A stretch of 64,000 nucleotides of DNA. Source: a virus. Of the stretch, positions 4,950 to 63,109 are shown piece after piece (position 1 is the first letter of the stretch; every line of letters starts with the position of its first letter). The translations under genes were made by a program, and so were the position numbers. Under the pieces are notes generated by a model. The model saw only the letters and a list, made by a program, of their open reading frames with translations. It ran no database searches and was not told the origin of the DNA. The stretch is from IMG/VR virus record IMGVR_UViG_3300044979_000004, positions 25,200 through 89,199 of that record; one strand, written 5' to 3'.

Positions 4950-5377
4950 TGGTTATCTTGCGCAAAGCTGTAGATGATGATATTCAGGGCATTTGGGATT
5001 TGAATGCTCTGATCAGGCCGAGAGAGCCTATAACCACTTTGAAAGCGGTGTTTTCACAGCCTGAAACTGTTGCGTGGGTTATGATCGACAATTTTAGAGT
5101 TGTTGGGGCTTTAGTGGGAAAAACAAAATTTTCCCTACCGTACATTCATTCCATCGCCGTTGAGCCTTCATATAGGAGACAAAGATGGGCGTCCAAGTTA
5201 GTAAATGAGTTTGAACTACACTTTAGCCGAAAAGGTAAAGGAAATTATTGGCTTCAAGTAAGACACGACAATCCGGCACAAAAGCTGTACTTCGATTTAG
5301 GGTACAGAGTCGAGAGTGTTGATGAGAATTTTTATGGTCCGGAGTTGCATGGTTTATGCATGTACAAAAGGCCATAG
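4949..5377 (+). CDS. GNAT (RimI-like) acetyltransferase
   Basis: IHSIAVEPSYRRQRWASKLV (motif A) and LQVRHDNPAQKLYFDLGY (motif B). Confidence 0.85.
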   Translation: MVILRKAVDDDIQGIWDLNALIRPREPITTLKAVFSQPETVAWVMIDNFRVVGALVGKTKFSLPYIHSIAVEPSYRRQRWASKLVNEFELHFSRKGKGNYWLQVRHDNPAQKLYFDLGYRVESVDENFYGPELHGLCMYKRP

Positions 5378-5421
5378 CGTATTAAATACGCGCCTTTAGT
5401 TTGGCCGCGTATTGTTTACGC
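5377..5421. promoter_or_regulatory. tandem 15-bp dyad sites (GCGTATTAAATACGC and GCGTATTGTTTACGC)
   Basis: Two palindromes 30 bp apart upstream of the capsid gene; the motif recurs elsewhere in the window. Confidence 0.6.
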
Positions 5422-5431
5422 ATGTACTATT

Positions 5432-5600
5432 TGGCATTCGCAGTCGGATTACTGTAGAGCCACCAACTAGCGTGAGGCAACTTCGGTTGAAGTCTTAACT
5501 GAAGTCAGAGAAACCACAGTCGGATTACTGTGTGAGTAGCTGACGCATAAGGACAGGAATTTCTAGGCATTGGAGGATGCAATAGAAGCTTCCCTAATCA
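5432..5600 (+). ncRNA. structured 5' leader of the major capsid gene with duplicated CAGT-CGGATT-ACTG hairpins
   Basis: Identical hairpins at 5441 and 5517, plus stems ACTTCGGTTGA/TTAACTGAAGT, GTCAG/CTGAC and TTTCTA/TAGAAG. Confidence 0.5.
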
Positions 5601-5615
5601 ATAAGGATAACTACT

Positions 5616-6650
5616 ATGGCTGGCTACAGTCCGTCTAGCAATCAACAGTCTAATTTGCCTCAGTCAACGGTTCGTTACTACGACAAAAAGTTTCGTGAGA
5701 ACCTTAAGGCACAGACCCCATTCGTGGCATGTTCAGAGCGTCTTGACCTGCCTATGAAGTCAGGTAACCAGTACGAGATGTTCATGTACGTTCCTCTTGC
5801 GGCTAACACCGTACAGACTTTGGAAGGTACAGTAGGTTCGGGTATTTCAGTACAGGTTCTAACCACAACTGCAACCATCGGTGAATACGCTGATTACGCA
5901 AACTTCTCAAGTCTGTCACTTGCTACCGCAATTGACAACACTGTCGAGAACGTTGCGCGTGAGCTTGCTTACCGCCTTGGTGAGTCTCTAAGCGCCCTTG
6001 TCCGTGCAACCGCTGACGGTGCAAACGCTGTTGACTCAAGCGTGCTGACACAGCTTGGCGCTTCAAGCTTGACTTCATTCACAACTTTGAGTCTTAACCA
6101 GATTCGTAACTCTGTCCAGAGTCTTGCTGGCCGTTCGGTTCGTCCGTTCGACGAAGCTTCAAAGACATTCTGCGGAGTTATTCACCCATTTGCGCTAGGC
6201 GACGTTCTTGCAGATCAGAGCAACGACTCACCTATCGACATTCTGAAGCACACCCCAGTGGGTCTTGCTCGTATGGAAGACTTGCTATCAACCGATCTAG
6301 CAGAAATGATCGAGCTTCCAAGCTCCGGTGTACGTTTCTTCCAGACAAACCAGGTTACTCAGACTACCAACTACAAGGGCGTAACGGGTCTAACGGCTCT
6401 ACGTACCTACATCTTTGGTCGTGACGGCATCTTCAGCATTAAGCTTGGTGCGCAGGGTGACACTGGCTTCGGTGACGGAGAGTGGCAGAACATCAAGTGC
6501 AACATTGTTCAGAATGCTGAGCCAACTGTTGCTGATCCTGAAGGTCTAATCCCCGGATGGACTAGCTACAAGGTTCACTTCACAACTTCGCTTGGACCTG
6601 ATACTACCATCCGTATCCGCGAAATCGACGCTGCATCTGCGATTAGCTAA
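5616..6650 (+). CDS. major capsid protein (N4 gp56-like, HK97 fold)
   Basis: 344 aa; TIGEYADY and C-terminal ADPxG...GW segments typical of this family; follows the scaffold and is followed by a terminator. Confidence 0.85.
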   Translation: MAGYSPSSNQQSNLPQSTVRYYDKKFRENLKAQTPFVACSERLDLPMKSGNQYEMFMYVPLAANTVQTLEGTVGSGISVQVLTTTATIGEYADYANFSSLSLATAIDNTVENVARELAYRLGESLSALVRATADGANAVDSSVLTQLGASSLTSFTTLSLNQIRNSVQSLAGRSVRPFDEASKTFCGVIHPFALGDVLADQSNDSPIDILKHTPVGLARMEDLLSTDLAEMIELPSSGVRFFQTNQVTQTTNYKGVTGLTALRTYIFGRDGIFSIKLGAQGDTGFGDGEWQNIKCNIVQNAEPTVADPEGLIPGWTSYKVHFTTSLGPDTTIRIREIDAASAIS

Positions 6651-6662
6651 GATGCGCTAGCA

Positions 6663-6690
6663 TAGGGGAGCCTAAAAACTCCCCTAATTT
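6663..6690 (+). terminator. intrinsic terminator after the major capsid gene
   Basis: TAGGGGAG/CTCCCCTA stem followed by a short T run. Confidence 0.6.
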
Positions 6691-14611: not shown

Positions 14612-17509
14612 ATGAACATTTTTAAGAAGCTATTAGGACTGGCCGTTATTGCGCTAGCAGTTGTAACTCCTAACTACGCGCAACAGTATCAGTCACAAAC
14701 CGCTCCAATTTACGCGACGAACGCCAAGTACGCCAATGGAGTATCACCTGGATTTGCTCTGACAGCGGGAACAGGGTTGAACATTTTGGTAGGACAGGGT
14801 ACGAGTTTTTGCAATACGGTGATTCAGGAAAGAACTACTACTGCCGCTGACACGCCTTTGGCACTTACTGCCAGTACGACAAATTATGTCTACCTTGATA
14901 CCACAGCTAATTGCGCTCCTGCGGTGAGCACTTCTGTATTTACAGCGACACAAATCCCATTGGCGAGAGTTGTAACAGGTACATCGTCTATTACCTCAAT
15001 TGATGACGTGCGCGGGTACTTCTTTAACTCAGCAGGCACCCCTGGAGATGGAACGGTTACCAACTTGGTTGTTGGAAATCTGTCACCACTATTCACGTCA
15101 GGAGTGACTAATCCGACCAGCACGCCAAGCGTATCGTATACACTATCTACAACGGCCAATGACACTGTATTCGCTAACTTTAGCGGATCAACAGGTGCCC
15201 CTTCATGGTGGACACTGGCAGCGGGAGCAAACATCACGTTTACCCCTTCTGGTAGCACGCTAATCATTGCAGCGACAGGCGGTGGAGGCGGAAGTCTCAC
15301 TCTTGAGCACAATGGCGTGGCACTTACGGACCAATCACTTCTTAATTTCAGTGACACTACTCCTTCGGCACCGGCTGGCAATGAGAATGTGACGTTTCAA
15401 TCGAACTCAGGTGGTGCGCTGTCCGGATACATTCCGACCACAGCCTCGCAACTTCAATTTACCCCTACCCCGCCAATATCAGGACAGTACGTGGTTGTGT
15501 ATGCCACAGCGGTAACCCCAATCGCAGGAGGTCTTGGACCGGGTTGCGGCATGACTTCAGTGCCAACAGGGTCCACTTTTTCTACCATAAATTCGCTTAT
15601 AGCCGGAAACAACTCTTGCGGCAACGGTCTAACCTCTAACCAATGGGGAGCACTTTGGAGCAACTACACACTGCCTTCATATGTGGTGCCTGCCAATGTA
15701 ACGGCAATTTACGCGTTTGCGGTTAACAGTTTCGGACCCTGGTATCCTGGTACTTCAACTGTCGCGGTGACTTGTACGCCAGTTGGATCAGGTGCAGTTA
15801 ATTTGTACACTGCCAGTCAAGCGTACAATCTAACTCAGTTTACACAGCTTCTTTCAACTGCAACGGGAAGCAATATTGGGTCCACGACTTGTACGGGATA
15901 TGTGAACTATTCAAACCCTCCGCCATCAGGCGCGGTTACTACTTTGAACATGCCGAGCATTGGCTTGATTGTCTATTACACAGGTTCGGCTCCGCCCGCT
16001 ACGAACACTATCAATGTTGGTTCACCATTGTTCTACAATGCTGCGGATAACACTCTTGGAATCGACCCTAACGCGGAATTCCCTGCAAGCAGACTAGTAG
16101 GTGTGACAGTAAGTACACTACCTGCTGCTGCGGTAACCGTTGGAACTGTGACTCTGATCAAGGACGGAACTACATCCACTGATTGTACAACAGGTGGAGG
16201 TTCTAACCCTGTAGTTTGTTACTCTAACGGAACTGCCTACTCAGCATATGGAGGAGGCGGTGGAAGCGGAATCACAGCTTTAACTGGAGACGTAACGGCT
16301 ACGGGACCGGGTTCTGTTGCAGCTACAGTTGTGGACATCCCTCCTCACGTAGCACTAACCGGAACACCATCACCAGGGCAAGTTCCAACAGCAACAGGAG
16401 GCACTTCTGCCACATGGCAGACTCCTTCGGCTGCATCGAACAGTCCTCAGACAGTTCTTTTACCTAACGATACCACTACGGGAACAACTGTCGGACTAAT
16501 GGCTTGCTGGAATACGTCAGCCATTCACCAACAGGAAGTTGTAAATTGTCCTGCTGGTACAGCTTCAAATGGCACGGACAATAACCCTCCTATTGTCGGT
16601 GTGTGTGTAGCCGGTTGCGGAACAAGCGGACTAGCAACTATCCAATTTGCCGGTCAGGTAAGTTGGAACTGCGACATGCAACTTGTGACTCCAACTGTCG
16701 GCAACGGCTATTGGGTTCAGGTGTCGGCAACTACTGCTGGTGAATGTACGCAACCAACAGGGTCATTTGCACCATCACCAAATGAGAACCCTGAAGGTAA
16801 CACAGTACTAGGACGTGTACTAGCTCTCAACTCCGGAGTGGGAACGGCTGGAACAATTGAATTGCTGCCGTTCGGCTCATACGGACTTGGTAACGGTACG
16901 GGACCAGCAGTAACTAATTTTGCGTTGCTGTTCAACGGTTCACCTTTTGGGGCAATGTCGTATTCGGGTCAGGAACCATCTACATTCACCGTTCCATATG
17001 CAATCGCCACAAACGGCTTGTTTATACACCAACCAGGCTCCAACGCGGGTGCGGTGATTGGCAACGCCGGATTGGGAGTAAGCGGAACGGACATCTCTTT
17101 TGATATGTTTGTTCACGGTTCTGGAAGTCCGCCTCAATCGATGTTCCGATTCGATGGCTCTCAGTATCAACCGCCATCGGCTTGCGGCTCTGGAGGGTTC
17201 GCGGCTTGCAGTTCAGCTACCGGAACTATCACACTTGGCGGACACAACGGAAACTTCGATCCTGGCAACAGTACAGGAGTCTTTATCATCAAGCTAGCAG
17301 GAAATGCCACAACGTTTACTCCGGTAACGGATGACAACCCTGGTCATATTCTGACGTTTGAATTTGAAGCTCCTGCCAGCGGAGGACCGTTTACTTGGGC
17401 ATGGCCAAGTGGCTTTGTGAACGCACCAACTATATCACTTTCATCAGGGGCAAATGCAATTGTAGCTCAGTTCCTATTCGATGGCACTAACTATAATTAC
17501 ATCCCATAG
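14612..17509 (+). CDS. tail fibre / adhesin-like protein with an N-terminal signal peptide
   Basis: 965 aa, Gly/Thr/Ser-rich; MNIFKK-LLGLAVIALAVV-TPNYA/QQ; located in the tail module. Confidence 0.65.
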   Translation: MNIFKKLLGLAVIALAVVTPNYAQQYQSQTAPIYATNAKYANGVSPGFALTAGTGLNILVGQGTSFCNTVIQERTTTAADTPLALTASTTNYVYLDTTANCAPAVSTSVFTATQIPLARVVTGTSSITSIDDVRGYFFNSAGTPGDGTVTNLVVGNLSPLFTSGVTNPTSTPSVSYTLSTTANDTVFANFSGSTGAPSWWTLAAGANITFTPSGSTLIIAATGGGGGSLTLEHNGVALTDQSLLNFSDTTPSAPAGNENVTFQSNSGGALSGYIPTTASQLQFTPTPPISGQYVVVYATAVTPIAGGLGPGCGMTSVPTGSTFSTINSLIAGNNSCGNGLTSNQWGALWSNYTLPSYVVPANVTAIYAFAVNSFGPWYPGTSTVAVTCTPVGSGAVNLYTASQAYNLTQFTQLLSTATGSNIGSTTCTGYVNYSNPPPSGAVTTLNMPSIGLIVYYTGSAPPATNTINVGSPLFYNAADNTLGIDPNAEFPASRLVGVTVSTLPAAAVTVGTVTLIKDGTTSTDCTTGGGSNPVVCYSNGTAYSAYGGGGGSGITALTGDVTATGPGSVAATVVDIPPHVALTGTPSPGQVPTATGGTSATWQTPSAASNSPQTVLLPNDTTTGTTVGLMACWNTSAIHQQEVVNCPAGTASNGTDNNPPIVGVCVAGCGTSGLATIQFAGQVSWNCDMQLVTPTVGNGYWVQVSATTAGECTQPTGSFAPSPNENPEGNTVLGRVLALNSGVGTAGTIELLPFGSYGLGNGTGPAVTNFALLFNGSPFGAMSYSGQEPSTFTVPYAIATNGLFIHQPGSNAGAVIGNAGLGVSGTDISFDMFVHGSGSPPQSMFRFDGSQYQPPSACGSGGFAACSSATGTITLGGHNGNFDPGNSTGVFIIKLAGNATTFTPVTDDNPGHILTFEFEAPASGGPFTWAWPSGFVNAPTISLSSGANAIVAQFLFDGTNYNYIP

Positions 17510-21205: not shown

Positions 21206-21649
21206 ATGATCACGAGTCGATACATAACTGCGGAAGACTACCCGTTATTGGAAACAAGTTTAGCTGCTGATCCCTACCATAAAGGAACGTCAATAGATTT
21301 CTTCAAAGAGCAGAACACCGTTACAAGTGTGTATTCATTTGATGATGAGTTGATCTTGTTCACGAGAGGAAAAGTAGTATCAACCAGTGGACCGGCGTTC
21401 ATACAACTTGACATTCAATTTATCAACAACGAAAGTCGGGCTAAAAACCTGATAGTCATGTTGACAGGATTTTATGAATTGGAGAAGAAATCCAGACAAG
21501 AAGGATTTGCCGGATTCATATTCCACAGCGATGTACCTTTACTCCGGAAGTTTTGCATTCGCAGGCTAGGATTCAGCGAATGGGGAGACTTCTTGGTGAA
21601 AGTTTTTGAACAAGCGCCCCTTGACACGGGCCTAGGAGTTGAGGTATAA
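21206..21649 (+). CDS. hypothetical protein, possibly a degenerate acetyltransferase fold (P22 gp14-like position)
   Basis: Sits between nozzle and ejection genes; C-terminal F..RLGF. Confidence 0.4.
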   Translation: MITSRYITAEDYPLLETSLAADPYHKGTSIDFFKEQNTVTSVYSFDDELILFTRGKVVSTSGPAFIQLDIQFINNESRAKNLIVMLTGFYELEKKSRQEGFAGFIFHSDVPLLRKFCIRRLGFSEWGDFLVKVFEQAPLDTGLGVEV

Positions 21650-21650
21650 T
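21621..21650 (+). promoter_or_regulatory. sigma70-type promoter in front of the ejection-protein genes
   Basis: TTGACA-18-TATAAT. Confidence 0.55.
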
Positions 21651-22443
21651 GGCTTATACACATACACGGACCATCTTCGAATGGGACGAGAAGCGTATTA
21701 AATACGTCAAGGTTTATGATGAAGGCTACGAATGGGACGGACCAGTAGATCAAGCGTGCGGCTCGACTCCGCAACAGAACCAGATTGAAGGTGCGCAGCA
21801 AAACTTTATGACCCAAGCGCAGTCTCAGGCGTCAACGGTATTTGGGGGAGCATCACAGGCGTTTAACAGTCTGATGAGCGCGTTTGCACCAATCGTCGCA
21901 GCCGGTCCAAGTCAACAAGGCTTCTCACAGCAACAGCTTTCGAATCTCAATTCCCAGGCTATCACACAGACGGGCATTTCTTACAAGAACGCTAAAGAAG
22001 CAGTCGGAGAGGCACAATCATCCGTTGGTGGCGGCAACGTATCTCTACCAAGTGGAACCCAAACTGGAGAGGATTTGGGACTGGCCGAAAGTGCCGCTAA
22101 CCAAACTTCCAGCGAACTTGGGCAGATTACACAAGCCAATTATGAAAAAGGTAATGCAAATTATAATGCCGCCGTATCTGGAGAGCTAGCAGCGCCGGGT
22201 GTTTTTTCGGCTTCAACCGGAGCAACCGGGGCGGCTACAAGCGCAGGATCAGCAGCCGCAAGCACGGCCAATCAAATCGCGTCGCAGAATAATTCATGGG
22301 TAGGAGCCGTTACCGGCCTAGCCGGGGCGTTGGGCGGTGCAGCATTAGGTGACCCGGCTCTGTTTGCAGGAAGTAGCAGTTCACAGGGCGCACAAGATGC
22401 CCAACAGGTATCGAACTATCAATCAGATGGAAATGGATTCTAG
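21649..22443 (+). CDS. DNA ejection (internal virion) protein 1
   Basis: Ala/Gln/Ser/Gly-rich with a C-terminal glycine zipper; podovirus synteny. Confidence 0.6.
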   Translation: MAYTHTRTIFEWDEKRIKYVKVYDEGYEWDGPVDQACGSTPQQNQIEGAQQNFMTQAQSQASTVFGGASQAFNSLMSAFAPIVAAGPSQQGFSQQQLSNLNSQAITQTGISYKNAKEAVGEAQSSVGGGNVSLPSGTQTGEDLGLAESAANQTSSELGQITQANYEKGNANYNAAVSGELAAPGVFSASTGATGAATSAGSAAASTANQIASQNNSWVGAVTGLAGALGGAALGDPALFAGSSSSQGAQDAQQVSNYQSDGNGF

Positions 22444-30655: not shown

Positions 30656-31960
30656 ATGGCAGACGTATCGTATACGCTGGAAGAAGTCATAAGCAATATG
30701 AAGTGGTTTATTGAGCATTACGGCAAAGCCACTCGAAAGGAATACAGAGCAGCCGAAGCCAAAGGCGCTCTCCCAGAAAGTGTCTGGGGAAAGCACTTCA
30801 AGAGTTTCACGGAATTTAAGGAAGCAGCCTCAGCGGAGATTCCAAAGGTGTCCTCCGAAGAAGAGAAGCACGAATTTAAGGACAATGTGTGGAACGTTCA
30901 TATTCCACAAACTTCGATTCGCACCCTTCCGGAACTGTTGGAACATTGTAAGGTAGACACATCGATCTGGCGCGTTGAGAGGTTCATCGTCAACAAGTGG
31001 GAGATGGGCGCTAAGAATGCAGACGGAGATGTAATTGTTACTCCTTTGTTTCAAGTGAAGGCTACGCTCGTTCAGAAGGATGAGGTCATAGCGGCTCGTA
31101 AAGAAATCGAAGACTTGAAGGAAGAGGCAAAGAAGTTCGCACATGAACCGTTTGATGTTGTGAAGCTAAGTCCTCTACAGTTCTCCGGCAATTCTTTAGA
31201 GATTCTTATACCTGACCTTCATGCCGGTAAGTTCGCCTGGGGCAAGGAAACAGGTCATCAGGATTATGATACACCCACAGCAATTCAAACGTATGAACGT
31301 GCGTTGGATAACATTTTATCGCAAGCTGCACACTATGTCATAGACGAGATTGTACTAGGTGTTGGCAACGATCTGTTGAACTCAGATGATTACAACAGTC
31401 AGACGACAAAGGGAACTCTAGTCAACAGTGACACGAGGTATCAGAAAACTTACAAAGCTGTGAGACAGATGATTGTACGTGCTGTTGAGAAGTGCCGCAC
31501 TTACACAAAGAAGGTAGTCGTAAAGGTAATCCCTGGTAACCATGATACACAGTCGATGTTTACCTTGGGAGATTCCTTGGAATGTTGGTTCCACAATTAC
31601 AAGGATGTGGAAATTGACAACGCCCCGACGCCTCACAAGTTCTACACATGGGGAAAAGTTCTTCTAGGCTTTACCCACGGGGACAAAGGAAAGAAGGCCG
31701 ATTACGGAATTTGGATGGCCACAGAGCGTCCAGAAGATTTCGGCAAGTCCAAGTTTCGTGAGATTCATATTGGGCATACACATGGGTTGAAGGTAGATGA
31801 AAAGTTCGGAGTTAGAGTGCGAACATTTGCAGCCCTCTGTCCGCCCGATGCTTGGCACTCTGCGGAACACTTTGTAGGAAACTTGAGACAGGCTGAGGCA
31901 ATTGTCTGGAACAAGGAAGCAGGACGAATTGCGGAGTTTATCCATACGGAGCTAGACTAA
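30656..31960 (+). CDS. calcineurin-like metallophosphoesterase
   Basis: DLH, GND, GNHD, HGD and GHTH motifs. Confidence 0.85.
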   Translation: MADVSYTLEEVISNMKWFIEHYGKATRKEYRAAEAKGALPESVWGKHFKSFTEFKEAASAEIPKVSSEEEKHEFKDNVWNVHIPQTSIRTLPELLEHCKVDTSIWRVERFIVNKWEMGAKNADGDVIVTPLFQVKATLVQKDEVIAARKEIEDLKEEAKKFAHEPFDVVKLSPLQFSGNSLEILIPDLHAGKFAWGKETGHQDYDTPTAIQTYERALDNILSQAAHYVIDEIVLGVGNDLLNSDDYNSQTTKGTLVNSDTRYQKTYKAVRQMIVRAVEKCRTYTKKVVVKVIPGNHDTQSMFTLGDSLECWFHNYKDVEIDNAPTPHKFYTWGKVLLGFTHGDKGKKADYGIWMATERPEDFGKSKFREIHIGHTHGLKVDEKFGVRVRTFAALCPPDAWHSAEHFVGNLRQAEAIVWNKEAGRIAEFIHTELD

Positions 31961-41699: not shown

Positions 41700-42120
41700 T
41701 ATTCCCCTGTGCTGCTTCCTGTTGTAGCTTGAAGTTAGCCACAGTACTCATGAACTGTAACCAACGCTTGAAGAACTTCGATCCCTGAAGTTGAATGATC
41801 ACATCATCCTGGCCGCTTGTGTGCATCTCGTCAAGCTGTTGGACGATTTCCCCATGGTTGTTGAACCAAGCCCACCAGCAATGCTCACAATTCCTATGCC
41901 GTGGCTGTCGGCTCAGATCGAGCCTGTGCTTGCAAGCGATGACCTTTGGCAGTTGGATGGTCACGTATTGTTTACGTAACTTCCTCATATCCGCTTCGGT
42001 CAGTTCTTTAGGTGCGAGGACTTCTGGAACCTCAGTAACCTCTGCTCCGTCTGCTGGAGCTTCGATTACCTCGTACTCCTTGTCGAGGAGGGCCTGTTCA
42101 GCGTTAGTCAATTCCTGCAT
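41680..42120 (-). CDS. hypothetical protein
   Basis: GGAGG RBS. Confidence 0.55.
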   Translation of the reverse strand: MQELTNAEQALLDKEYEVIEAPADGAEVTEVPEVLAPKELTEADMRKLRKQYVTIQLPKVIACKHRLDLSRQPRHRNCEHCWWAWFNNHGEIVQQLDEMHTSGQDDVIIQLQGSKFFKRWLQFMSTVANFKLQQEAAQGNNAEATS

Positions 42121-42688: not shown

Positions 42689-43091
42689 CTTTTCCCCTAA
42701 GAGCGTTTATTGCTTTCGCTCTAATTTTTGTTCCAACTCTTCCCGGCACTGTGAACCTATCTTTGGACAGGACACAGCTAAATGGAGGAGCGATTAGATA
42801 GCTAGCGGCATTTCCTAGACTCTTGTAGCTGTCTTGGAAAACAGCTATACCTTTGTTGCATGGCCAGCAGATCAATCCACGAACTAGTCCTGTTGTGTGA
42901 CAGTGATCAACCGATAGTACTAGTCCTTGTCCCTTCTTTCCATGCTTCTTTTTGCAAATTGCACAACATCCTTCTTGGTATTGCAATACTTTGTTATACT
43001 CAGATAGAGTAATGTTGTACTCTCTTTGTAGTCGTAGGTCTTTTGCCCTTTCTCTTTTCTCTTTCAGTGTCATCAATTTTCCAAGAAGCAA
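42651..43091 (-). CDS. endonuclease VII-like nuclease (resolvase or homing nuclease)
   Basis: CAIC, VDHCHTTGLVRGLIC..CN. Confidence 0.85.
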   Translation of the reverse strand: MLLGKLMTLKEKRERAKDLRLQREYNITLSEYNKVLQYQEGCCAICKKKHGKKGQGLVLSVDHCHTTGLVRGLICWPCNKGIAVFQDSYKSLGNAASYLIAPPFSCVLSKDRFTVPGRVGTKIRAKAINALRGKGGSNKKRKTGKK

Positions 43092-46295: not shown

Positions 46296-47495
46296 TTACG
46301 TATTGTCCTTCAACAGGAACGCATTGCTCACTATCTTCATTTGCTTACGGCCAATGCCTCTCGCGTGTCCTTCGATTGCCGTCTTCACAACGACTCCCTC
46401 CCGGATGTTTTTGGCTCCCGGCACTTTAGAGATTCCATCCACATGTTTCTGAACCGCTTCCAAGCTATATGGACCTACAAAGAGCACAGGAACGCTATGA
46501 TCCCAAATGTGGATCACTTCAGGATCAGACTCATCGGCCCATGTTCCATCTGACTTACGAATGTCGAATACAAAGAACTGAGGCTCTTTGCTGCCGTACT
46601 CATACCCAGCTTGAGTGGGACAAACTTCCCCCCACAAGACGTAACCGGGATTAGCCTCGCACCATTTACCGATCCACGGCTGCGTATTTAATACGCGCCT
46701 GAATATGCAGTTCGAATCAGGTGACTTCCACAAGTTCCTACTGCCCGCATACTGCTTCCCATCGAGGTAAATGAAGCGTGCGTTGGACCCGTGAATCTTC
46801 TCCGTGACGATTACCCTCTCGCCTTCCGTGAACGTGTTCGGATGATTCTTCAAAGCCTCTACGTCATAGATCGGGATACCGAGAGCCACAGATTCAGACT
46901 TACCGTCAGTCATGGCTTCTAGTCTGAAGAACTGTCTGACCAGGCGCGTGATGTAATTTACCCATCCACGTAGGCTCTTGGGATAGCCTTTAACCTTGGC
47001 CTTTGGAGCGTGTTCGTTTGAGCCACCAGCTTCGAACTTGACCGCATCGGGGTCATAATGCGTGATGCCTAACAGGTCTGATACGTCTGTTCCTTCAGGA
47101 AAGTCGGACTCAAGTTGTGTAGAATGGTTTCCAGACAACGATCTAAGTTCGAAAAAATCAGTGACAGGAAGTAACAACCCTTCTGACCACTCGCCACGGA
47201 ACTTACGAACGGTAATTCTCCTGCGCTTTTCAGGCACTTGAAAGGTTGTCCCAGGTTCGGTCGGCTCACACATATACTGCGACCAGATAAAAGAGAATGG
47301 CTCAGTCTGAGGAACAACCGAGTCGGGTTGAATGTAAACGCCTAAGTCTCCGACCTTAAACTGACCTTTACGAGATACCACCTGATATTCCCCTACGGGA
47401 ATAATCTCTAGGCTGTCGGCATTGTTATGGGGTAAAACTTCCCGTACGGTAACAATGTTCGCTTGGTGATTAGCTTTCTTGATTGTATTTGTCAT
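46296..47495 (-). CDS. RNA ligase, DRB0094/Rnl5-like with an N-terminal OB fold
   Basis: H.NAD.LE OB domain, TEKIHGSN, GEV, FDI, REGVV, K.VS..FL. Confidence 0.88.
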   Translation of the reverse strand: MTNTIKKANHQANIVTVREVLPHNNADSLEIIPVGEYQVVSRKGQFKVGDLGVYIQPDSVVPQTEPFSFIWSQYMCEPTEPGTTFQVPEKRRRITVRKFRGEWSEGLLLPVTDFFELRSLSGNHSTQLESDFPEGTDVSDLLGITHYDPDAVKFEAGGSNEHAPKAKVKGYPKSLRGWVNYITRLVRQFFRLEAMTDGKSESVALGIPIYDVEALKNHPNTFTEGERVIVTEKIHGSNARFIYLDGKQYAGSRNLWKSPDSNCIFRRVLNTQPWIGKWCEANPGYVLWGEVCPTQAGYEYGSKEPQFFVFDIRKSDGTWADESDPEVIHIWDHSVPVLFVGPYSLEAVQKHVDGISKVPGAKNIREGVVVKTAIEGHARGIGRKQMKIVSNAFLLKDNT

Positions 47496-50095: not shown

Positions 50096-50410
50096 TCATT
50101 TCGGCCTCCATCCCTTCACTCTAGTAAATCGTACTACTAGGTTGTCTTCCGTTGTTGATAGAACTTCTATCTTAAGTTTGCCATCATGTACGGCCCGGTG
50201 ACACTGCGCACAAAGAGTCAGAATGTTGTTCATGTCATTTGTGCCCTGCTGTGATCTAAAAATGACATGATGCGGATGGAGATTTGACCTGTCGCTACAA
50301 TGGCGGCACTTCCAGTCATCTCTCCAATAGACCATGGTTGGATAGCGTTTAGTTGCTGCTGTCATTTGAACCAAATGGGAAAATACGCCCCGTAGTTCAG
50401 GCAGAACCAC
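50096..50410 (-). CDS. HNH endonuclease
   Basis: RD.WKC.HC, HH...S..G.....N..TLC..CH..VH. Confidence 0.85.
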   Translation of the reverse strand: MVLPELRGVFSHLVQMTAATKRYPTMVYWRDDWKCRHCSDRSNLHPHHVIFRSQQGTNDMNNILTLCAQCHRAVHDGKLKIEVLSTTEDNLVVRFTRVKGWRPK

Positions 50411-51771: not shown

Positions 51772-52258
51772 CCGTTAACCACTCGGCCCCCAGTTTCTTC
51801 TTTGAAATTCTCATGGCATCTTCACCGTACTGCTGCCGGACAAGTCCCAGGATAAACTGCATCTGTTCCTTGTACGTCTGAACGTAGTGATCTACACTGT
51901 AGAAGTTAGCAACTTTGGGAGTGTAGTGAAACACGTTCTCACGAGGGCCTATTACGCATATGGTCTTTCCAAGAGCCAATGCGTAGCCGAACTCAACATG
52001 CCGTCCGCCGCGCTTCCAGCCTTGCAGCGGGTCTTCAGAAAAGAAGATGACTACATCGGCAGCAGCCACATCCTCTAGGTCGATCTGGGCAGTTGCTTCG
52101 TAGAACTCTTTTGAATGATCGCCCATATCGCTGTTCACATCTTCCGTCTCATTCAGCCAGCGGGAAGTAGTCTCAATGCCTACCTCCTTGCGCAGCCTTT
52201 CAGCTACTTCTTTAAATTCTTCCCTTCGCGCGTAGCGCCCTGCCAAATAAGCCTTCAA
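51707..52258 (-). CDS. nucleoside 2-deoxyribosyltransferase / nucleotide N-glycosidase fold protein
   Basis: YLAG, DL..V..AD, GG..VEFGYA.ALGK. Confidence 0.8.
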   Translation of the reverse strand: MKAYLAGRYARREEFKEVAERLRKEVGIETTSRWLNETEDVNSDMGDHSKEFYEATAQIDLEDVAAADVVIFFSEDPLQGWKRGGRHVEFGYALALGKTICVIGPRENVFHYTPKVANFYSVDHYVQTYKEQMQFILGLVRQQYGEDAMRISKKKLGAEWLTDVPVIESLQEKGGDEQISFGG

Positions 52259-53277
52259 TTGATGTCCTCCTTGTTGATCATCTTCCAGATTGCCTTCTTG
52301 TAGTCTCCTTCATCAATTAGAGCGAAGCAGACACTTGAGTATTTAATACGCGTCTCCTCTTTGAAGAACTCAGCGAACTCTTTGCGAGTAGTACACACCT
52401 TCAAAGCCTCTTCTACGATGGACGTTACCGCTTTAAAGATTTGGTCGTATTCGGTTGTGCGCGTATTTAATACGCTTTCCTGCTTCTTAGCTTCCTGCTC
52501 CTCGTAGAACTTCTTTCTGTTCTCCAGATAGGTAGGAAATTTGATCTTCAACTTGAAAGGCGTTTTGCCGGGAATGTGGTATGTCACCACATAGCCCTCA
52601 AAGTGATTTCCCCAATCATCTCCGGTTAGTGCATCGCGCAAGCTTAGACCGTGCCATACAGGCGCTCTCAGATTGTTCTTTTTGGCATAGTTAAAAACGT
52701 CAAAAGGAGGCAACTCTTCTCCTGTTTCGTTATTGATAATAGCCAGTAAAAACAGTCCGTCCTTTTTGTATTTGATCACGTGTTCCTGAACGGTTTGGCA
52801 GATGATTTCGAACACTGGTGTATAGCCTTCGGGGAAAACAAGTTTACCGTGCTCCTCGATATGATCTTCAAGCCATTTGGTCGCCCACTTAGCATGGTCG
52901 GATGTGAAAGACCCTTTGGTGGCAATTCCCCAGTGAATACCGTAGCGCCAGAAGATACCTAATGAACCGTTGACCTTCTCTTGAATCACAGGAGGGCCAT
53001 ACACGTCATCTATAGTCTCCAGGCGTTCGTCGGTTTCTACGTCCTGTCCTTTGGAAAAGAATTTCTCGAAAGGACGAGCGATGATTTCAGTGGTATTTGT
53101 ATCTACAATCAGCCCACGGCACTTCCGCGTGACATCATCCCAAACGTGATCGAACAAACACTTCCGGCTGTAATGATAAAGAGCTAAGGGCAGAGTTGGG
53201 TGAAAATTTACCTGCACAATTCCACGTTGAATGTGATCCAACAACTTCTTTGTATCAAGATATTCAGCTAACTTCAT
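52255..53277 (-). CDS. RNA ligase, T4 Rnl1-like
   Basis: CRGLI, RPFEKFF, EKVNGSLG, ATKGSF, FE, EGYV, KIKF..Y. Confidence 0.9.
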   Translation of the reverse strand: MKLAEYLDTKKLLDHIQRGIVQVNFHPTLPLALYHYSRKCLFDHVWDDVTRKCRGLIVDTNTTEIIARPFEKFFSKGQDVETDERLETIDDVYGPPVIQEKVNGSLGIFWRYGIHWGIATKGSFTSDHAKWATKWLEDHIEEHGKLVFPEGYTPVFEIICQTVQEHVIKYKKDGLFLLAIINNETGEELPPFDVFNYAKKNNLRAPVWHGLSLRDALTGDDWGNHFEGYVVTYHIPGKTPFKLKIKFPTYLENRKKFYEEQEAKKQESVLNTRTTEYDQIFKAVTSIVEEALKVCTTRKEFAEFFKEETRIKYSSVCFALIDEGDYKKAIWKMINKEDIN

Positions 53278-56333: not shown

Positions 56334-56339
56334 ATACCC

Positions 56340-56678: not shown

Positions 56679-57263
56679 TTAGCTTCTTGTCTGCCAACAT
56701 CTTATCAAAAACTCCCAAACAGCAAAACTTGTGGGTTTCGGTGATCTGGTTGACCGTATGCAGACTTCCGTTGCCCTCTCGGTTAGATTCCATTCAGTCG
56801 AGTACACTTCCGTATCGAACATTTCGTCATCTAACTCCTGCACAGAAACGACCCCTAGGCATTTTGCCTTTGGTGCGAATACGTGCATCTTCCTTTGTAT
56901 TCTTTTGACCGTTGCTCCGCTATCTACAAAGTCATCTACTATAATGTACTTCTTAGTACCATCAAATCCCTCTACGTTATTTCCTGAATGGTTTTCGTCG
57001 TCCTCTTTGCGAACGAGTACCATTTCCTTTTCCAGGCGCAATGCAAGAATTGGACCGATAAGAGTACCAGATGATCCACTAAAAACTATCGTATCGTACG
57101 GTGCCGATATGGTTCGCATGGCCCTGGCTGCGTCTTGTGCGTGCTTCTTGAGGGATGCCGTACACACGAACTTTGTTATCCAACTCGATCCCCTATATCT
57201 CTCTCGCTTTACCATGCCACTCCTATGACATTGCTGCTGCAAAGGCTTTGCTGGCGGATTCAT
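56679..57263 (-). CDS. type I phosphoribosyltransferase-fold protein
   Basis: PRPP-binding loop IIVDDFVDSGAT; upstream LVRK. Confidence 0.75.
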   Translation of the reverse strand: MNPPAKPLQQQCHRSGMVKRERYRGSSWITKFVCTASLKKHAQDAARAMRTISAPYDTIVFSGSSGTLIGPILALRLEKEMVLVRKEDDENHSGNNVEGFDGTKKYIIVDDFVDSGATVKRIQRKMHVFAPKAKCLGVVSVQELDDEMFDTEVYSTEWNLTERATEVCIRSTRSPKPTSFAVWEFLIRCWQTRS

Positions 57264-57744
57264 CCGATTCTTTCAGATACTCGCCCGTGCTTTGGATCGA
57301 GCGATGGCCCAAATATTGACGAACCCGCTGAATTCCGATCTTATCAATCGTCTCCATAGCACAGGCGTGCTTTAGAGCGTGTGGGTGAAGTTTGTGCGCC
57401 GGAATGCCTGCCCTCTTGCCAGCCCGCTGCATGAGCTTTAGGACGCCGTTGCGGGTCATGGGAAACAATCGCTCGTGTTGTTTTAGTGTCTGTGCAAGCT
57501 CTGTCAGCCTGTCCGCCTCATTAAGCTCCGGCTCCGGGTGCCTAACGAATGGCTGCGTGGTCTTCATGGACCCTTTCAACCTTTGGACAGTAACGTAGCC
57601 GTCTCGGATGTTAGCCTTGGTCAAACTGATCAATTCACTCACCCTCAATGCATGTAAAAATCCCACGGCTATCATCAACTTTTGGCGCTCGTTTGGTATC
57701 TCTCGTATTAACTTAACGATTTCATCCTTGGTTAAGTATTGCAT
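57223..57744 (-). CDS. minimal tyrosine recombinase (catalytic domain only)
   Basis: LRVSE, RLKG, HALKH, LGH.SIQST..Y. Confidence 0.85.
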   Translation of the reverse strand: MQYLTKDEIVKLIREIPNERQKLMIAVGFLHALRVSELISLTKANIRDGYVTVQRLKGSMKTTQPFVRHPEPELNEADRLTELAQTLKQHERLFPMTRNGVLKLMQRAGKRAGIPAHKLHPHALKHACAMETIDKIGIQRVRQYLGHRSIQSTGEYLKESDESASKAFAAAMS

Positions 57745-59497
57745 CGACTTCTACCTTTCTGGTTGTCTCTTCGAAAATGCCCTCAATCGTGTCAACGAAT
57801 CCATATATGCCATGGTTGCGTTCTAACCATCGTCCAGTATGACCACTCTCCCCACGACACGGTAATCCATTGTCCGTGTTAAGAGTTTGGAGTCGCTTCA
57901 TCAAGTGTCTAGCGTGTTCCACGTTCTGACATATGTGTTTGATTCGGTGGTGTCGAGGGGAGCGGCCATAGTTGTACACAATGAGTGATATATAAATCAC
58001 AGTCTTCATAGTACCAAAACCTCTCTAGGCTGTCAAGCCTTCGGCTTCGGCCTTCGCATGACTCCAGCCGTCTTGCCACACACGCACCGTTGTCGGCTTC
58101 TTAGGATCGCGCCTGATCGATGCAATCGAGTAGGGCGGGATGTTCTTCCACCCTCTCTTAAACGCAAACTTCCCGGCTTCGTAAATGTCCGCGTCAGTGA
58201 CTTCGGGCGGAGGGAGATAGATGCACACTATGCCCTCCATTCCTTCGCTGTGTTGAACGCTTCCTCTTGAGAGCAAATCACACATTGCATGTGGGGCGGA
58301 AAACTGCCGACACCGTTGGCAATATGTACCACGTTGACGTGGTCCCCGACAGGGGTAAAGCTTAGTGAAGACACGGCTAGTACAGCCATATTCTCAGTCG
58401 TGACAGCGTACTGGCCCTCTTCAAGTTGTCCCAATGTAGTGAATTTCATGCTACCTTTCCTCTTAGTGAGGCCACAGCCTGATCCCAGGTGTCGCCAATT
58501 GCTAAAACGAGTTTGCCGTTCTTCTTACAGCCCACTCGTTTGTAGTTAATGTGGTCTTCAGTGAGGAAGCTTCCACCAAACTCTTTACGTCCAGCGTTGA
58601 GTACCTGTTCTTGTGCTGTCAAACGTGCCATGAATCTCCTGCTCCTAGTAGCTTTGTCCAGTACCATTCTGATCCCGTGCTTCGGCATCGGCCAGATGTT
58701 GACGGGCAGCGGCAAGCCGTGCTTGTAGCAGCACGCGCTCCTCGTTGCTGATCCCTTGGGTTAGTGCCAGTGTGTCGCGCTCAATCTCGGCGCGAAAGAA
58801 TGCTGCATTGTACTGCCGTGTGTCGTTCATGTTCTCCTTGTGTACTTTAGTTACTTAGAAGCTCTCGACAGTAACCTTGACGGTCCTGCCGTGGAGCTTG
58901 TTGTTGATCGCACGGATTTGCTGGCGAACTGTTTCCAGTTTCTCCTGCACGTCGCTCTCTCCGCCCAGGAATACAACAGGCACCCAGGTTCCATCTGCCT
59001 TGATAGCCACTTCACGGCCTTCTACCAGGGTCTTTCCGGCCAGTACCAAATCAGGATACTTGTCGGCCAGTGAGAACACGCGAAGATTGACAAGCAGAAT
59101 CGATCCGGCTAGCCCTGCGCGTTCGGTGTCCCGGTCAGTTACGAGGATGAAGTTGACGTGTGGCTTGGCTTCTGCAATGACCCGTTCAAGGTATGCATCG
59201 TCGTTAGTTGTGGTGAAACTGTATACATCAGGCGTATTTGATACGCGGCTCAATTTAGAACTCATGTGACTTCTCCTTAATCTTTTATTACCATTGTGGG
59301 GGACGCTCGGAGTCTTCTCGCGGTAATGGTCCGATATGAACTCCACTGCCTTACATGTGGATACCTACACGCACACCCACAATCTTTTGTCACAAACCTG
59401 CCATCCCTCTTATGTCCAAAGGACATCACCATGTTCATTCATGGTCTGTGCGGCGATTTCCTTTTCAGGTTCAGTTGGTCCGCACCGGAATGAGAGT

Positions 59498-59902
59498 TTA
59501 CTTCGTTGCGGTCTTTGTGGCCTTCTCAGCCTTCCGCCACACTCGCACCGCACCAGGAACCTCTCGCAGGATCACGGCAAGCCCGTTGCGGTATGCAAAC
59601 GTCCGGATGCTGGTAGAGACTGACTTCACCTTGTCCGCCGCAGCAGGCACATCGAAGAACTGGTCAGAATCGGCCTTAAGCTGATCGATGGGATATTTCA
59701 GACCGGCTGTACGTCCGCGCTTAGTCGGTACAGGTGCAGTACCAAAAGTGAATCCACTCCGGATTGTCTCCAACACGTTGCCAAGAACCTCTTCGTATGA
59801 AGGGATTTCAGGCTGAGATTCCACGTCTGCCGGTTCTTCCGGAACACGGGGAACGATTGCAATGTCCCTATCGGTTAATACAGAACTCTTTTTCTTAGAC
59901 AT
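59498..59902 (-). CDS. small putative DNA-binding protein
   Basis: RGR...KYP.DQL....FFDVP...VRVWR pattern; has its own promoter and a dyad site. Confidence 0.5.
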   Translation of the reverse strand: MSKKKSSVLTDRDIAIVPRVPEEPADVESQPEIPSYEEVLGNVLETIRSGFTFGTAPVPTKRGRTAGLKYPIDQLKADSDQFFDVPAAADKVKSVSTSIRTFAYRNGLAVILREVPGAVRVWRKAEKATKTATK

Positions 59903-59928: not shown

Positions 59929-59984
59929 GCGTATTTAATACGCAATTACAAGTCCATGGTACCACAACACAATCCGATTGTCAA
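59929..59984 (-). promoter_or_regulatory. sigma70 promoter with a 15-bp dyad just downstream of the start site
   Basis: TTGACA (59984-59979)-17-TACCAT; dyad at 59929-59943. Confidence 0.7.
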
Positions 59985-60431: not shown

Positions 60432-60466
60432 AGTACCATTATACCTCAGTACCATTTGTATGTCAA
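60432..60466 (-). promoter_or_regulatory. consensus sigma70 promoter with two ATGGTACTGAG direct repeats
   Basis: TTGACA-17-TATAAT; one repeat in the spacer and one directly after the -10 box. Confidence 0.75.
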
Positions 60467-60498
60467 GAGGTACTTAATCCTCTAAACATTTCCTCTAG

Positions 60499-61176
60499 TC
60501 AGGCCCAACTCGTATCCTCATCTTCCGGCATGATGGCTGCGTCCTTGTAGCCCTTGATTGCTTTGTTGCCGTTCATCCATGCTTTTTTGATGGGAGTGTT
60601 TACCGTTGCTGGCAACTTTTTAATACGATTGAGTAAAGACTTTGCAAACGGGGTAGCGGCCTTGACATTCATCGGCAAGTACAGCGGTAGTCCGGCTTCA
60701 AGCTCGCCCAGGGGGAACTCTCTGATCATCTCCATAGCCCACTCGCCGTGAGAACCGCGCTTCAAGGCTCCGGGTCCGCTTATGTCTACGTAATCGTCAA
60801 TCCCAGGATGGTAAACGACACAATGATTCGGGGAATCATCGGCGTCACCTACTCCGAGAATGGGCCATCCCGTTTCCTTGCTGATCACGTAGGCGAGACT
60901 GTGACACTGACCCGTGTTCAATGCGCGGCGGGCATTGTCGTTGATAACCCCTAAGTGCTTCTTAGGGGTTATCTCTAGAGGAATCTTCTTCTGGAACCCA
61001 TACGGCCCAGAGTAAGTGTCCACGGTGACGATCTGATTGCGGCGATTGTTGGTCGAATTATTTGTCTGCACGTTACGCCTCCGCTCCGGTGATAAACAAC
61101 TTCTCACCCAGAACTTCATTCCACTCGGCAAACATCGCCGTAACAAAGCCGGTGTCGTAAGCTTCCACATCTCCAA
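60499..61176 (-). CDS. papain/transglutaminase-like fold candidate
   Basis: GQCHSLA, HCVV, YVDI.G (Cys-His-Asp order). Confidence 0.45.
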   Translation of the reverse strand: MEMWKLTTPALLRRCLPSGMKFWVRSCLSPERRRNVQTNNSTNNRRNQIVTVDTYSGPYGFQKKIPLEITPKKHLGVINDNARRALNTGQCHSLAYVISKETGWPILGVGDADDSPNHCVVYHPGIDDYVDISGPGALKRGSHGEWAMEMIREFPLGELEAGLPLYLPMNVKAATPFAKSLLNRIKKLPATVNTPIKKAWMNGNKAIKGYKDAAIMPEDEDTSWA

Positions 61177-61612
61177 TAATGGTATCGTAGATGGTCAGCC
61201 CGCGTTCTTTCAGCCCCTCGTTCTGATCCCCATTGAGGAGATGCTTCTCGGCAACGATAGCCAGCTTCCGGTTATCGTTCTGGTAGAACGCATTGAGGAA
61301 TTGCAGGCACACCCCAACAGGAAAGCGTGAGTGTAGGTGCATCCGGTCTGCCCGGTATTGCTTCGACAATGCTACATGCGTCGGTGAGTGCTTCAATGAC
61401 ATGATTCCCATTCGGTAAATCTCCTTTGTCCGTGTTGGCTGTTGTACTGCGATTAGTGGTGATTGAGGCAAACCAAACCTGCGTCAATTAAAGCTTTTGC
61501 TTGCCGTCCGTAGGCTCCCTGTAAACTCCAAGCAAGCCCGGAATATACAAGCTCTTGGAACAGTTCGATGGTGCCTTGCTCATCTAGGTCACCATTCTCC
61601 CAGGCCATCATT

Positions 61613-61954
61613 TTATCCAATTGATCCATCGGCTTGATCCTCCGGCGCACCATCGCGCTCCACAAGTACCACAGTCGCCGCCAGTTCTGCAATCGCCACG
61701 CTTTCCTGATTGGTTGCGCGTCTGATCTTCTCGGCCAATCGAGTTGCTATAAACTCGTCAATACCGAAAATCTCGATGATCAGAGACTTCTCCTTGACTC
61801 CTTTATAGTATCCGGTTCCTTCGATCAAAGTGTAGCCGTCTACGTCTTTGTCTCCGGTAAGAATGTCGATAATCAGTGACCGATAGTTTGCCCGGTCTTC
61901 GCAGTAAATCCGATAGACGTTGGGTGTATCTTGAAGCGGTACTAAATGGGACAT
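61613..61954 (-). CDS. PII-like / SAM-lyase-like small protein
   Basis: GYT...G.G.Y.G..E.S..IE, LA..I...NQESV. Confidence 0.4.
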   Translation of the reverse strand: MSHLVPLQDTPNVYRIYCEDRANYRSLIIDILTGDKDVDGYTLIEGTGYYKGVKEKSLIIEIFGIDEFIATRLAEKIRRATNQESVAIAELAATVVLVERDGAPEDQADGSIG

Positions 61955-62599
61955 GGTTCAATCTCCTGATATCCGATGTGCATGGAGCCTTTCAGCATTA
62001 GCTGCTCCCACTCATCCGTTAATTGTTCGTTATAGTCGCTGAACTGATGTTCTCGATCATCCTGGCACGTCCTCAGATAGAACTCAGCACTAAATTCTAT
62101 GCCATTGAGTTGATAAGAAAACGTACCCATGTGAATGTCGCAGTTCTCGGCAGGCTCCTCGGCCTGAATGCGCGAGATATGCAGAGTCGCCATGATTAAG
62201 ACTCCTCTACAATCTCGACAACCTTTTCGCCCGTCCGCTCCAGCAAAGGAATTTCAAAGGCGAGATGTTCGAAAACCGATCCGATAAGGATTTCCCCACC
62301 CTTAGCGAACCACCAGATGTGTAGGTAATGCTCGACAACCATTCCAACACATCCGAATGCGGCCAGTACGACTACCTTGCGGGTAAGGTAGCGCTGCCAG
62401 TGAATGTGACGGACATCACGTAAATGTATGTCCTTCAAAGATTTGCTCATGCATAAGTACCATCCTCTCTTGTTAAAATGTTATTGTTGAGATGATAGCG
62501 ATTAGTACCACTGCCATCAGGATAGCTGCATCTCCGAGTGTGAACTCCTCTTCAGGATATTCTTCAGCTTCGGTTTGAACTAACTTGATCATATCAGAG

Positions 62600-63109
62600 T
62601 TACCTCAATTCGTCAAGAGATTTGTTTCTGATTGTCCACAAGTAATGCTCAACAAATGCATACTGCTCTTGCGGGAAGTGTCCAGTTTTGGCATACTCGT
62701 CAAACTGCCCGATCACTTCGGCGTATACGATACGCTTGAACCACTCCCGATGTGTTACTCCTAAGACTGTGTTATACCCCATCATCGGCCAGAATGTATT
62801 GTCCAGCCCAGGGTACTCGTCGATCTGTCGCCACATCTCCAGCATGGCCTTGTATTCACCCTCTCGGCTGAAGTCACCATCCGTGATGAGATGACAAGCA
62901 TCGTGCCACGCACGGAATAGCCAGTTGATCGTAGGATCACCAAAGACAGTACCAGTCGAGTAGTCTACGTTGATCTTGATGGAACCTCTCGCCCGATAGT
63001 CGGCCTTCATCGCAGCAAAGTCCGGGTAGCTGGTTCCTGACAACGTGTGCGGTACAAGGCTACCAAAGAATCGAACCAAACCATTAAACTCGTGATTAAG
63101 AACTGGCAT
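62600..63109 (-). CDS. hypothetical phage protein
   Basis: AAGGA RBS; FRAWHD..H...F...GE motif. Confidence 0.6.
   Translation of the reverse strand: MPVLNHEFNGLVRFFGSLVPHTLSGTSYPDFAAMKADYRARGSIKINVDYSTGTVFGDPTINWLFRAWHDACHLITDGDFSREGEYKAMLEMWRQIDEYPGLDNTFWPMMGYNTVLGVTHREWFKRIVYAEVIGQFDEYAKTGHFPQEQYAFVEHYLWTIRNKSLDELR

Follow-up and report, generated by a model that had tools for sequence, protein, structure and literature searches.

Recognition sites in mobile genomes take several forms. The nut boxB element of lambda is an RNA hairpin bound by the N protein, and plasmid RK2 contains twelve KorB operators. The OB sites of this IncP plasmid form a network in which a dispersed palindrome, found both near promoters and distant from them, is read by one dimeric global protein encoded by the element itself, according to the available text of PMC11790492. 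Cluster A phages (L5) are described in the available text of PMC9283540 as carrying more than 20 asymmetric 13-mers, the stoperators, at promoters and in short intergenic spaces, where they are bound by a monomer in an orientation-dependent manner. Cluster K phages contain 11-19 SAS/ESAS repeats per genome at translation starts, virtually absent from the hosts and of unknown function and binder; one half of them are immediately preceded by inverted repeats, and they are conserved across subclusters beside unrelated genes, as far as the available text of PMC3203893 describes them. Here we report on a 15-bp palindrome, GCGTATTAAATACGC, dispersed through the phage genome of IMG/VR record IMGVR_UViG_3300044979_000004 and through the genomes of its relatives. 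The motif is real, shared by the phage family, present in lineage-specific versions, nearly absent from the host and clustered in a hub.

The stretch analyzed, referred to as the window, comprises 64,000 nucleotides, bases 25200-89199 of the 89,199-bp record (estimated completeness 93%); adding 25199 to a window coordinate gives the genome coordinate, and the whole genome is called G000 (the record is also L057). A plus-strand structural block lies at about 17-63 kb of the genome, and a minus-strand early and replication block at 63-89 kb, resuming at 1-16.7 kb. Gene calls were made with a custom open reading frame (ORF) and Shine-Dalgarno heuristic, which makes distances to starts approximate, and for several of the statistics windows or classes were picked after inspection of the data.

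In the window, seven sites differ from GCGTATTAAATACGC at one position or none, where 100 dinucleotide-preserving shuffles gave no such site, and the looser pattern CGTA-N5-TACG occurs 11 times (shuffle mean 0.40, maximum 2). The strong copies reported in the original prediction, at 5377, 21693, 46682, 52337, 52461, 59232 and 59929, were all recovered with 0-1 mismatch, as were its loose copies at 5407/8, 30663/4, 41963/4 and 62721/2, together with one that it had not listed (16290/1). The whole genome contains 14 sites of this quality and 19 copies of the strict core CGTAT-N3-ATACG, where dinucleotide shuffles give 0.03. The enrichment also survived the codon-preserving shuffle that had been proposed as a check: 13 strict cores lie within genes, against a mean of 0.55 (maximum 4) in 300 synonymous-codon shuffles within each gene.

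This enrichment is a property of the complete palindrome. No other palindrome with arms of 4-6 bp and a gap of 0-10 bp approaches it in the G000 genome. Isolated half-sites are neither enriched nor skewed (CGTAT outside palindromes ranks 450 of 512), and a Chi-like or half-site reading was therefore rejected. The information content of the flanks is about zero at all 45 positions on each side (85 sites). Across IMG/VR the exact 15-mer was found in 48 contigs with one copy apiece, which is the chance level, and no multi-copy relative appeared among them.

The nearest named relative of the phage is Tunturiibacter phage Tunturi_3 (PP885686, 97.6 kb), a lytic podovirus of an acidobacterium, and 268 IMG/VR relatives were found with the major capsid protein. 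Tunturi_3 and eight IMG/VR relative records (seven of them complete; a 75-kb contig was left out) were used for comparison; protein identity among the compared genomes is about 35-75%. CGTA-N5-TACG occurs 22 times in G001, 18 times in G002 and 11 times each in G003 and Tunturi_3, where 0.5-0.9 copies are expected, and 16 times in G009 (about 1 expected). The half-sites differ between lineages. G000 has the version GCGTAT..ATACGC and G009 CCGTAY..RTACGG, Tunturi_3 mixes CGTAC and CGTAT halves, G007 retains only GTAT-N3-ATAC (38 copies, 1.8 expected), and G004 has no CGTA-type site and nine copies of TCTA-N5-TAGA with identical spacing (0.27 expected). No clear equivalent of the motif was found in G005 and G008. 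The spacing is constant in every lineage, with 3 bp between the arms, or 5 bp between the invariant CGTA and TACG. Both halves switch together between lineages, whereas within a lineage they vary independently, with no covariation. Since protein identity is so low, the geometry of the site has persisted through a long divergence in which the outer bases of the two halves changed jointly. Half-sites that are independent within a lineage, concerted between lineages and set at a fixed spacing suggest that one protein subunit reads each half.

The phage RecA gene (window 40157-41269, minus strand) is of the bacterial type (Pfam RecA, E 8e-106), and its best 80 genomic relatives (49-55% identity), one of which is the Tunturi_3 host strain, are nearly all from Acidobacteriota, with few other taxa, so that Acidobacteriota is well supported as the host phylum. 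In five Acidobacteriaceae genomes (3.5-6.2 Mb, including Tunturiibacter X5P2) the pattern CGTAY-N3-RTACG occurs 5, 7, 3, 3 and 1 times, compared with 7, 17, 5, 16 and 12 times for a control, the same pattern read backwards. The density of the motif in G000 (19 in 89 kb) is about 260 times that in the host (5 in 6.2 Mb). These counts bear on the idea that the site belongs to a host factor, an Acidobacteriota transcription factor or nucleoid protein exploited by the phage. The firm assignment of the host phylum suits that idea, and the lineage versions could follow differing hosts; however, 1-7 copies per host genome, below the 5-17 of the control, would leave a tiny host regulon, and Tunturi_3 carries 7 strict-Y copies in 98 kb as against 5 in the 6.2 Mb of its own host. 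We consider a host factor very improbable.

The reading that we prefer, and to which we would give roughly an even chance, is that a family-wide palindrome, (R)CGTAY-N3-RTACG(Y), has the 15-mer as its high-affinity form and is bound as double-stranded DNA by a predicted symmetric, dimeric phage protein. Two inverted half-sites at a set spacing would each be read by one subunit of this phage-encoded, sequence-specific protein, and its specificity would co-evolve with the version of the site. The binder would regulate or mark phage DNA: at the hub and at the sites adjacent to gene starts it would probably repress or block early or middle gene expression, and the sites within genes may be weaker or architectural targets. 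As far as sequence comparison can tell, an operator-like protein-binding network, one of the two possibilities raised in the original prediction, still appears to be the best reading, and it can be extended to the whole phage family.

Several observations weigh against this reading. About three quarters of the sites lie within genes, which is unusual for operators, and a strong sigma-70-like promoter was found within 40 nt of only 6 of 85 sites (4% at random). No helix-turn-helix, ribbon-helix-helix, ParB or repressor family member was detected in 70 ORFs searched with Pfam and 30 with PHROG. The purine bias on the sense strand in G000 and G001, described below, is unexpected for a purely symmetric site in double-stranded DNA. 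Finally, the symmetry and the lineage versions would equally fit a protein that recognizes a hairpin in RNA or single-stranded DNA.

The asymmetric centre of the dyad had been thought to follow the direction of transcription. In the window this stood, the sense-strand centre being A in 7 of 7 sites. In the whole G000 genome the rule weakened to an 11:2 ratio of TAA over TTA on the sense strand, with the TTA exceptions at genome 7094 and 19707; this bias has P 0.03 given the sense-strand excess of A, and in 2 of the 11 the strand of the gene is ambiguous. Stop codons fail to explain it because two open frames exist in each orientation. No rule holds across the family, since the central bases pooled from 160 sites of eight related genomes are A 37, T 38, G 51 and C 34; in G001 the centre is G in 15 sites and C in 2, and the remaining genomes show no bias. 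A TAA or TTA centre is present in 13 of the 19 strict cores of G000, the centre being unconstrained in relatives, and G007 contains GTATACGATAC, with an ACG/CGT centre, seven times. The shared centres in these two genomes may be due to a preference of the lineage or to sites having been copied from one another. A 15:3 sense bias of CGTAAAC.ATACG dissolved on closer comparison, as the CGTAAT variant gives about 1:5, the pooled ratio is about 16:8 and several of the sites are orthologous.

The other possibility raised in the original prediction was an RNA hairpin of boxB size. Compared with partner-shuffled sites, there was no covariation at pairs 0/14, 5/9 and 6/8 (P 0.22, 0.69 and 0.22; 85 sites), and double changes of the outer pair, such as A..T, numbered 9 against 9.1 under independence. 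Mismatches compatible with G-U pairing were equally frequent in sense (26) and antisense (25). The predicted RNA hairpin has a median energy of -5.6 kcal/mol in G000 and of -2.5 to -4.0 kcal/mol in the relatives, which fix a stem of only 4 bp. In the absence of covariation, of an excess of wobble pairs on the sense strand and of conservation in the flanks, a boxB-like hairpin, or a promoter, is disfavoured. An RNA-level element would have a phage RNA-binding protein or nuclease read a hairpin (in G000 with a 6-bp stem and a triloop) between cistrons and near ribosome-binding sites, so controlling translation, processing or mRNA stability in the manner of boxB or a translational operator. It would be suited by the many non-coding sites that are intercistronic, 4-26 nt 5' of a Shine-Dalgarno sequence within operons, by one site that covers roughly +5 to +20 of a transcript and by four that cover +8 to +22 of coding regions, inside the footprint of the ribosome. 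The moderate stability of the G000 hairpin, the 11:2 strand bias of its loop and other small palindromes that, by eye, stand in G002 and G003 where G000 has its site ahead of the gene for a 134-amino-acid (134-aa) protein also fit. Most sites, however, lie deep in genes, where a hairpin would have no obvious use and where the sites cost amino-acid changes; this, the lack of a strand bias across the family and the results on pairing make an RNA-level element unlikely in our judgment.

A role as promoter was considered in two forms. The reading as a sigma-70 or phage promoter was rejected: the flanks are not conserved, there is no second element at a set distance, and few strong promoters lie near the sites, as counted above. 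A hairpin promoter of the N4 type, serving an RNA polymerase of the virion, is unsupported. Among the large virion proteins searched for such a polymerase, the one of 963 aa proved to be internal to the virion and to have a transglycosylase domain, and the 965-, 914- and 888-aa proteins revealed nothing relevant. The early promoters themselves (59956-59984, 58008-58036 and 60438-60466, with orthologs in G001, G003 and G007) have an extended -10 element, TGGTAC(C/T)AT or TGGTATACT.

Returning to the double-stranded DNA reading, the placement of the sites suggests where a bound protein might act. Among 85 CGTA-N5-TACG sites in five genomes, 20 are non-coding and 19 lie no more than 30 nt from a start codon, each against 10% at random and hence enriched about twofold; seven are centred 23-27 nt before the start, which places them 4-6 nt 5' of the Shine-Dalgarno sequence. 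In G007, 9 of 38 sites are non-coding and 7 of 38 near starts. Two further genomes have 2 of 16 and 2 of 9 non-coding sites, and the sites near starts number 4 of 9 in G004 and 0 of 16 in G009. A subset of sites keeps a fixed place, 4-15 nt 5' of the Shine-Dalgarno sequence, in codons 3-11 of some genes or in the leader of the 134-aa gene. A site also precedes both members of a paralogous pair at genome 17258 and 19740 and their G002 ortholog. These paralogs (genome 17258-17791 and 19740-20630) both begin MSFN(N/Q)TF. In each, 6 nt separate the site from the Shine-Dalgarno sequence that follows it, but the centres of the two sites are opposite (TGA and TTA).

The sites concentrate around the gene for an AAA ATPase. 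Of the 148 sites in eight genomes, 36 fall in the stretch that extends from the ATPase start 2 kb into the gene and 5 kb upstream, where 7.5% are expected, the test window (-2 to +5 kb from that start) having been picked after the data were inspected. This hub contains 4-11 sites around the ATPase gene, and 3 of the 9 variant sites of G004 fall there. In G000, G002 and G007 the Shine-Dalgarno sequence of the ATPase gene itself is preceded by a site at a distance of 4-10 nt. In G000 the hub includes a small minus-strand operon with a site ahead of each cistron, and in G007 the same holds for four consecutive genes. The products of the G000 operon (genome 3680-4060) are a basic protein of 59 aa and a pair of hydrophobic peptides, 26-28 aa long, and the operon terminates in a strong intrinsic terminator (genome 3399-3422); a similar small membrane peptide is encoded in the G007 hub. 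At least four HNH/Endonuclease VII-type genes were found in G000 (genome 4083-4622, plus strand, and 5042-5881, minus strand; window 42651-43091 and 50096-50410, both minus strand). One gene of this type lies on the opposite strand within the hub and carries sites both internally and at its 5' end, and the hubs of G001 and G002 also contain such a gene.

The original prediction had placed sites ahead of the capsid leader, and those at 5377 and 5407 do immediately precede a conserved leader, which is about 190 nt long. The place of the second is occupied by an inverted variant in G001, L060 and L063. At the start of the leader an adjoining site is present in G000 and in 3 of 71 relatives, where it has the opposite orientation. 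The leader (window 5425-5615) was compared upstream of the capsid gene in L059, L060, L061, L063, L066 and L067; it is far better conserved than the flanking genes, with CAGTCGGATTACTG twice and long invariant runs, and it has the look of a structured leader RNA or of an element that regulates the major capsid gene. Sites just downstream of two promoters had also been reported, of which only the one at 59929 (TTGACA-17-TACCAT) could be confirmed. The features of the window are collected in Table 1.

Table 1. Motif sites and associated features of the phage genome (window coordinates unless marked as genome coordinates; an empty cell means that no strand is given)
Feature	Position	Strand	Context
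Exact site GCGTATTAAATACGC	5377..5391	+	Overlaps stop codon of ORF 4949..5377, upstream of capsid leader
Variant site GCGTATTGTTTACGC	5407..5421	+	Fills spacer of weak TTGGCC-18-TACTAT promoter-like pair (by eye), 5' of capsid leader
Loose CGTA-N5-TACG match	16290..16304		In 965-aa tail gene; arms without extension, may be chance
One-mismatch site	21693..21707	+	Codons 15-19 of tail gene 21649..22443
Site ACGTATCGTATACGC	30663..30677	+	Codons 3-7 of DNA-repair exonuclease gene 30656..31960; same codons in G001
Variant site ACGTAAACAATACGT	41963..41977	-	In conserved LRKQYVT coding motif
Exact site	46682..46696	-	In RNA ligase gene 46296..47495; orthologs without site, four residues differ
One-mismatch site	52337..52351	-	In T4 Rnl1-type RNA ligase gene 52255..53277
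Exact site	52461..52475	-	In RNA ligase gene 52255..53277, indel-rich segment
173-aa tyrosine recombinase homolog, catalytic domain only	57223..57744	-	Pfam Phage_integrase, E 1e-21; XerC/XerD homolog
One-mismatch site	59232..59246	-	Codons 7-11 of gene starting at ATG about 59265; in 8-codon insertion relative to G002
134-aa gene	59498..59902	-	Conserved motif target
Exact site	59929..59943	-	5' leader of 134-aa gene, 12 nt past -10 box
Sigma-70-like promoter TTGACA-17-TACCAT	59956..59984	-	Conserved upstream of G001, G003 and G006/7 orthologs
Site GCGTATCGTATACGC	62721..62735	-	In ORF 62600..63109
Motif copy	genome 11926-11940		

The sites within genes are mostly without conservation. The tail gene site at 21693 has a one-mismatch copy at the orthologous place in G002, and the variant at 41963..41977 may be partly explained by conservation of the protein. 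Three sites fall within two RNA ligase genes (Pfam RNA_ligase and RNA_lig_T4_1), as first noted. At the 46682 site the G000 ligase reads FRRVLNTQPW, where relatives have FRRAVKELKW or similar, a replacement without an indel. These residue changes and the 8-codon insertion at 59232 indicate that an in-gene DNA word has been gained at the protein's cost. The insertion would also suit a micro-palindrome that spreads by itself, through gene conversion or through repair set off by a nuclease, and that serves the phage in no way, as would the several HNH/Endonuclease VII genes in or near the hub, the TAA/TTA centre shared by 13 of 19 strict cores in G000 and the sevenfold GTATACGATAC of G007. On the other hand, the RNA ligase site replaced existing sequence without an indel, gene-start positions are conserved, and the geometry persists with altered half-sites at about 50% protein identity, pointing to long-term selection; self-spreading thus seems most improbable.

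The small gene at 59498..59902, which encodes the 134-aa protein, had been put forward as an autoregulated binder of the motif. The site downstream of its promoter is present and is kept in G001 and G002; this marks the gene as a conserved target and does not by itself make its product the regulator. A consensus promoter followed by a site precedes the 134-aa ortholog in G000, G001 and G002; G003 has the promoter without the site, and in G006/7 a half-degenerate GTAT-ACT-GTAC overlaps, by eye, the -10 box. The protein has no Pfam match, a single sub-threshold PHROG match of unknown function (E 0.0099) and ten database homologs, all unnamed; an Atlas search gave a weak lead to DUF7303. In an AlphaFold2 model (mean predicted local distance difference test score, pLDDT, 70) the N-terminal half is disordered and the C-terminal domain, which is conserved and arginine-rich, is beta-alpha-beta-beta with pLDDT about 90. 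Foldseek gave nothing against the PDB at E<=0.001, and the best VIA-align Z score was 5.1 (SpoVS), at noise level. No DNA-binding fold was recognizable by Pfam, PHROG or these structure comparisons, and no ortholog was detectable in Tunturi_3 or G009, which have 11 and 16 sites. Motif and gene therefore do not co-occur throughout the related phages, indicating that the 134-aa gene is a recurrent target and that its product is no credible universal binder. The Tunturi_3 gp78, a 'transcriptional regulator', was likewise rejected since it has no homolog in G000-G004.

A different protein comes to attention by its conservation. The 173-aa tyrosine recombinase homolog is a core gene in 10 of 10 genomes compared. 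Arg II is changed to Lys (HxLRH to HxLKH) in every ortholog, and the other catalytic residues, namely Arg I, the RLKGS lysine, the two His and the Tyr, are present throughout. Its relatives in the Protein Data Bank are XerC, XerD and XerA, which bind inverted repeats as dimers. As the sole core protein with such relatives it is a speculative candidate for the binder, by analogy. Across genomes, CGTA-type motifs track only a T7 gp4-like primase-helicase, a Cas4-type exonuclease and two structural-module proteins (6 of 6 with the motif, 0 of 3 without), none of which is an obvious reader of DNA sequence, and this pattern is confounded by phylogeny.

These genes raise the question whether the site serves an enzyme or a DNA-handling machine and not a transcription factor. 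The 173-aa homolog, acting in a nicking or topoisomerase-like manner, would be one example, and loading sites for replication, recombination or condensation would be others. The 260-fold density over the host and the spread of the sites through coding DNA on both arms of the genome agree with this, as do the presence of the 173-aa gene in all 10 genomes with its catalytic residues kept save Arg II and the coincidence of the motif with the primase-helicase and the Cas4-type exonuclease. Tyrosine recombinase core sites, however, have 6-8 bp between their arms, whereas the arms here are 3-5 bp apart; G004 has a variant motif without the primase-helicase and exonuclease genes, and sites that favour the hub and gene starts point to regulation. 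We regard a DNA-handling role as doubtful, and as a still fainter prospect its more specific form, in which the palindrome would be a self-DNA tag for the 173-aa homolog, which would clamp phage DNA, and no other, or would nick it or treat it in a topoisomerase-like way. If the latter were true, the site versions CGTA, GTAT, CCGTAC and TCTA would stem from co-evolution of enzyme and site.

Two relatives contain further palindromes. G007 has GATGGT-N5-ACCATC in 5 copies (0.01 expected), and G009 has TGACAA-N1-TTGTCA in 6 copies (0.02 expected), which resembles back-to-back TTGACA -35 boxes; one copy, in the region 33540-33600 of G009, adjoins a CGTA-type site and a consensus promoter.

The motif belongs with the dispersed recognition-site networks of mobile genomes, and it departs from each of the L5, SAS/ESAS and KorB systems in defining features. 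It resembles the L5 stoperators, which are bound by one phage protein according to the available text of PMC9283540 and correspond to the roadblock network of the original prediction, in having many short sites genome-wide. It differs in being a dyad with both halves fixed, in having no family-wide orientation and in lying mostly within genes; moreover, the relative in culture is a lytic phage, and the scanned ORFs (70 with Pfam, 30 with PHROG) yielded no repressor. Like the SAS/ESAS repeats, so far as the available text describes them, it is tied to starts and absent from hosts. The SAS, however, is asymmetric and includes the ribosome-binding site, and the ESAS has arms of 17 bp with a variable spacer (available text of PMC3203893), whereas the present motif is a single palindrome of 13-15 bp with a set spacing and about 20% of its copies near starts. 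With the KorB OB network it shares a dispersed short palindrome and a local cluster (19-38 copies per genome, 4-11 in the hub), but KorB belongs to the CTPases of the ParB family, the Pfam scan of 70 ORFs yielded no ParB-like domain, and the element is a lytic phage and not a plasmid. As in lambda boxB, the G000 site could form a stem of 5-6 bp with a loop of 3-5 nt, and one copy stands in a promoter-proximal leader; unlike boxB, it shows no covariation and no strand rule, has a weak stem in the relatives and is mostly in-gene.

Phages of Acidobacteriota have only recently been studied in culture; in the available text of the Tunturi paper the terms 'palindrom' and 'promoter' are absent, no other literature search on this phage group having been made. 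The motif represents a concrete, testable regulatory or DNA-marking code for these phages, and since Tunturi_3 can be cultured, the binder can be sought directly. The series of site versions, set against a density contrast of more than 100-fold between phage and host, offers material for following how a protein and the specificity of its DNA site change together. The motif could also act as a signature for assigning metagenomic contigs to the group of phages related to Tunturi_3.

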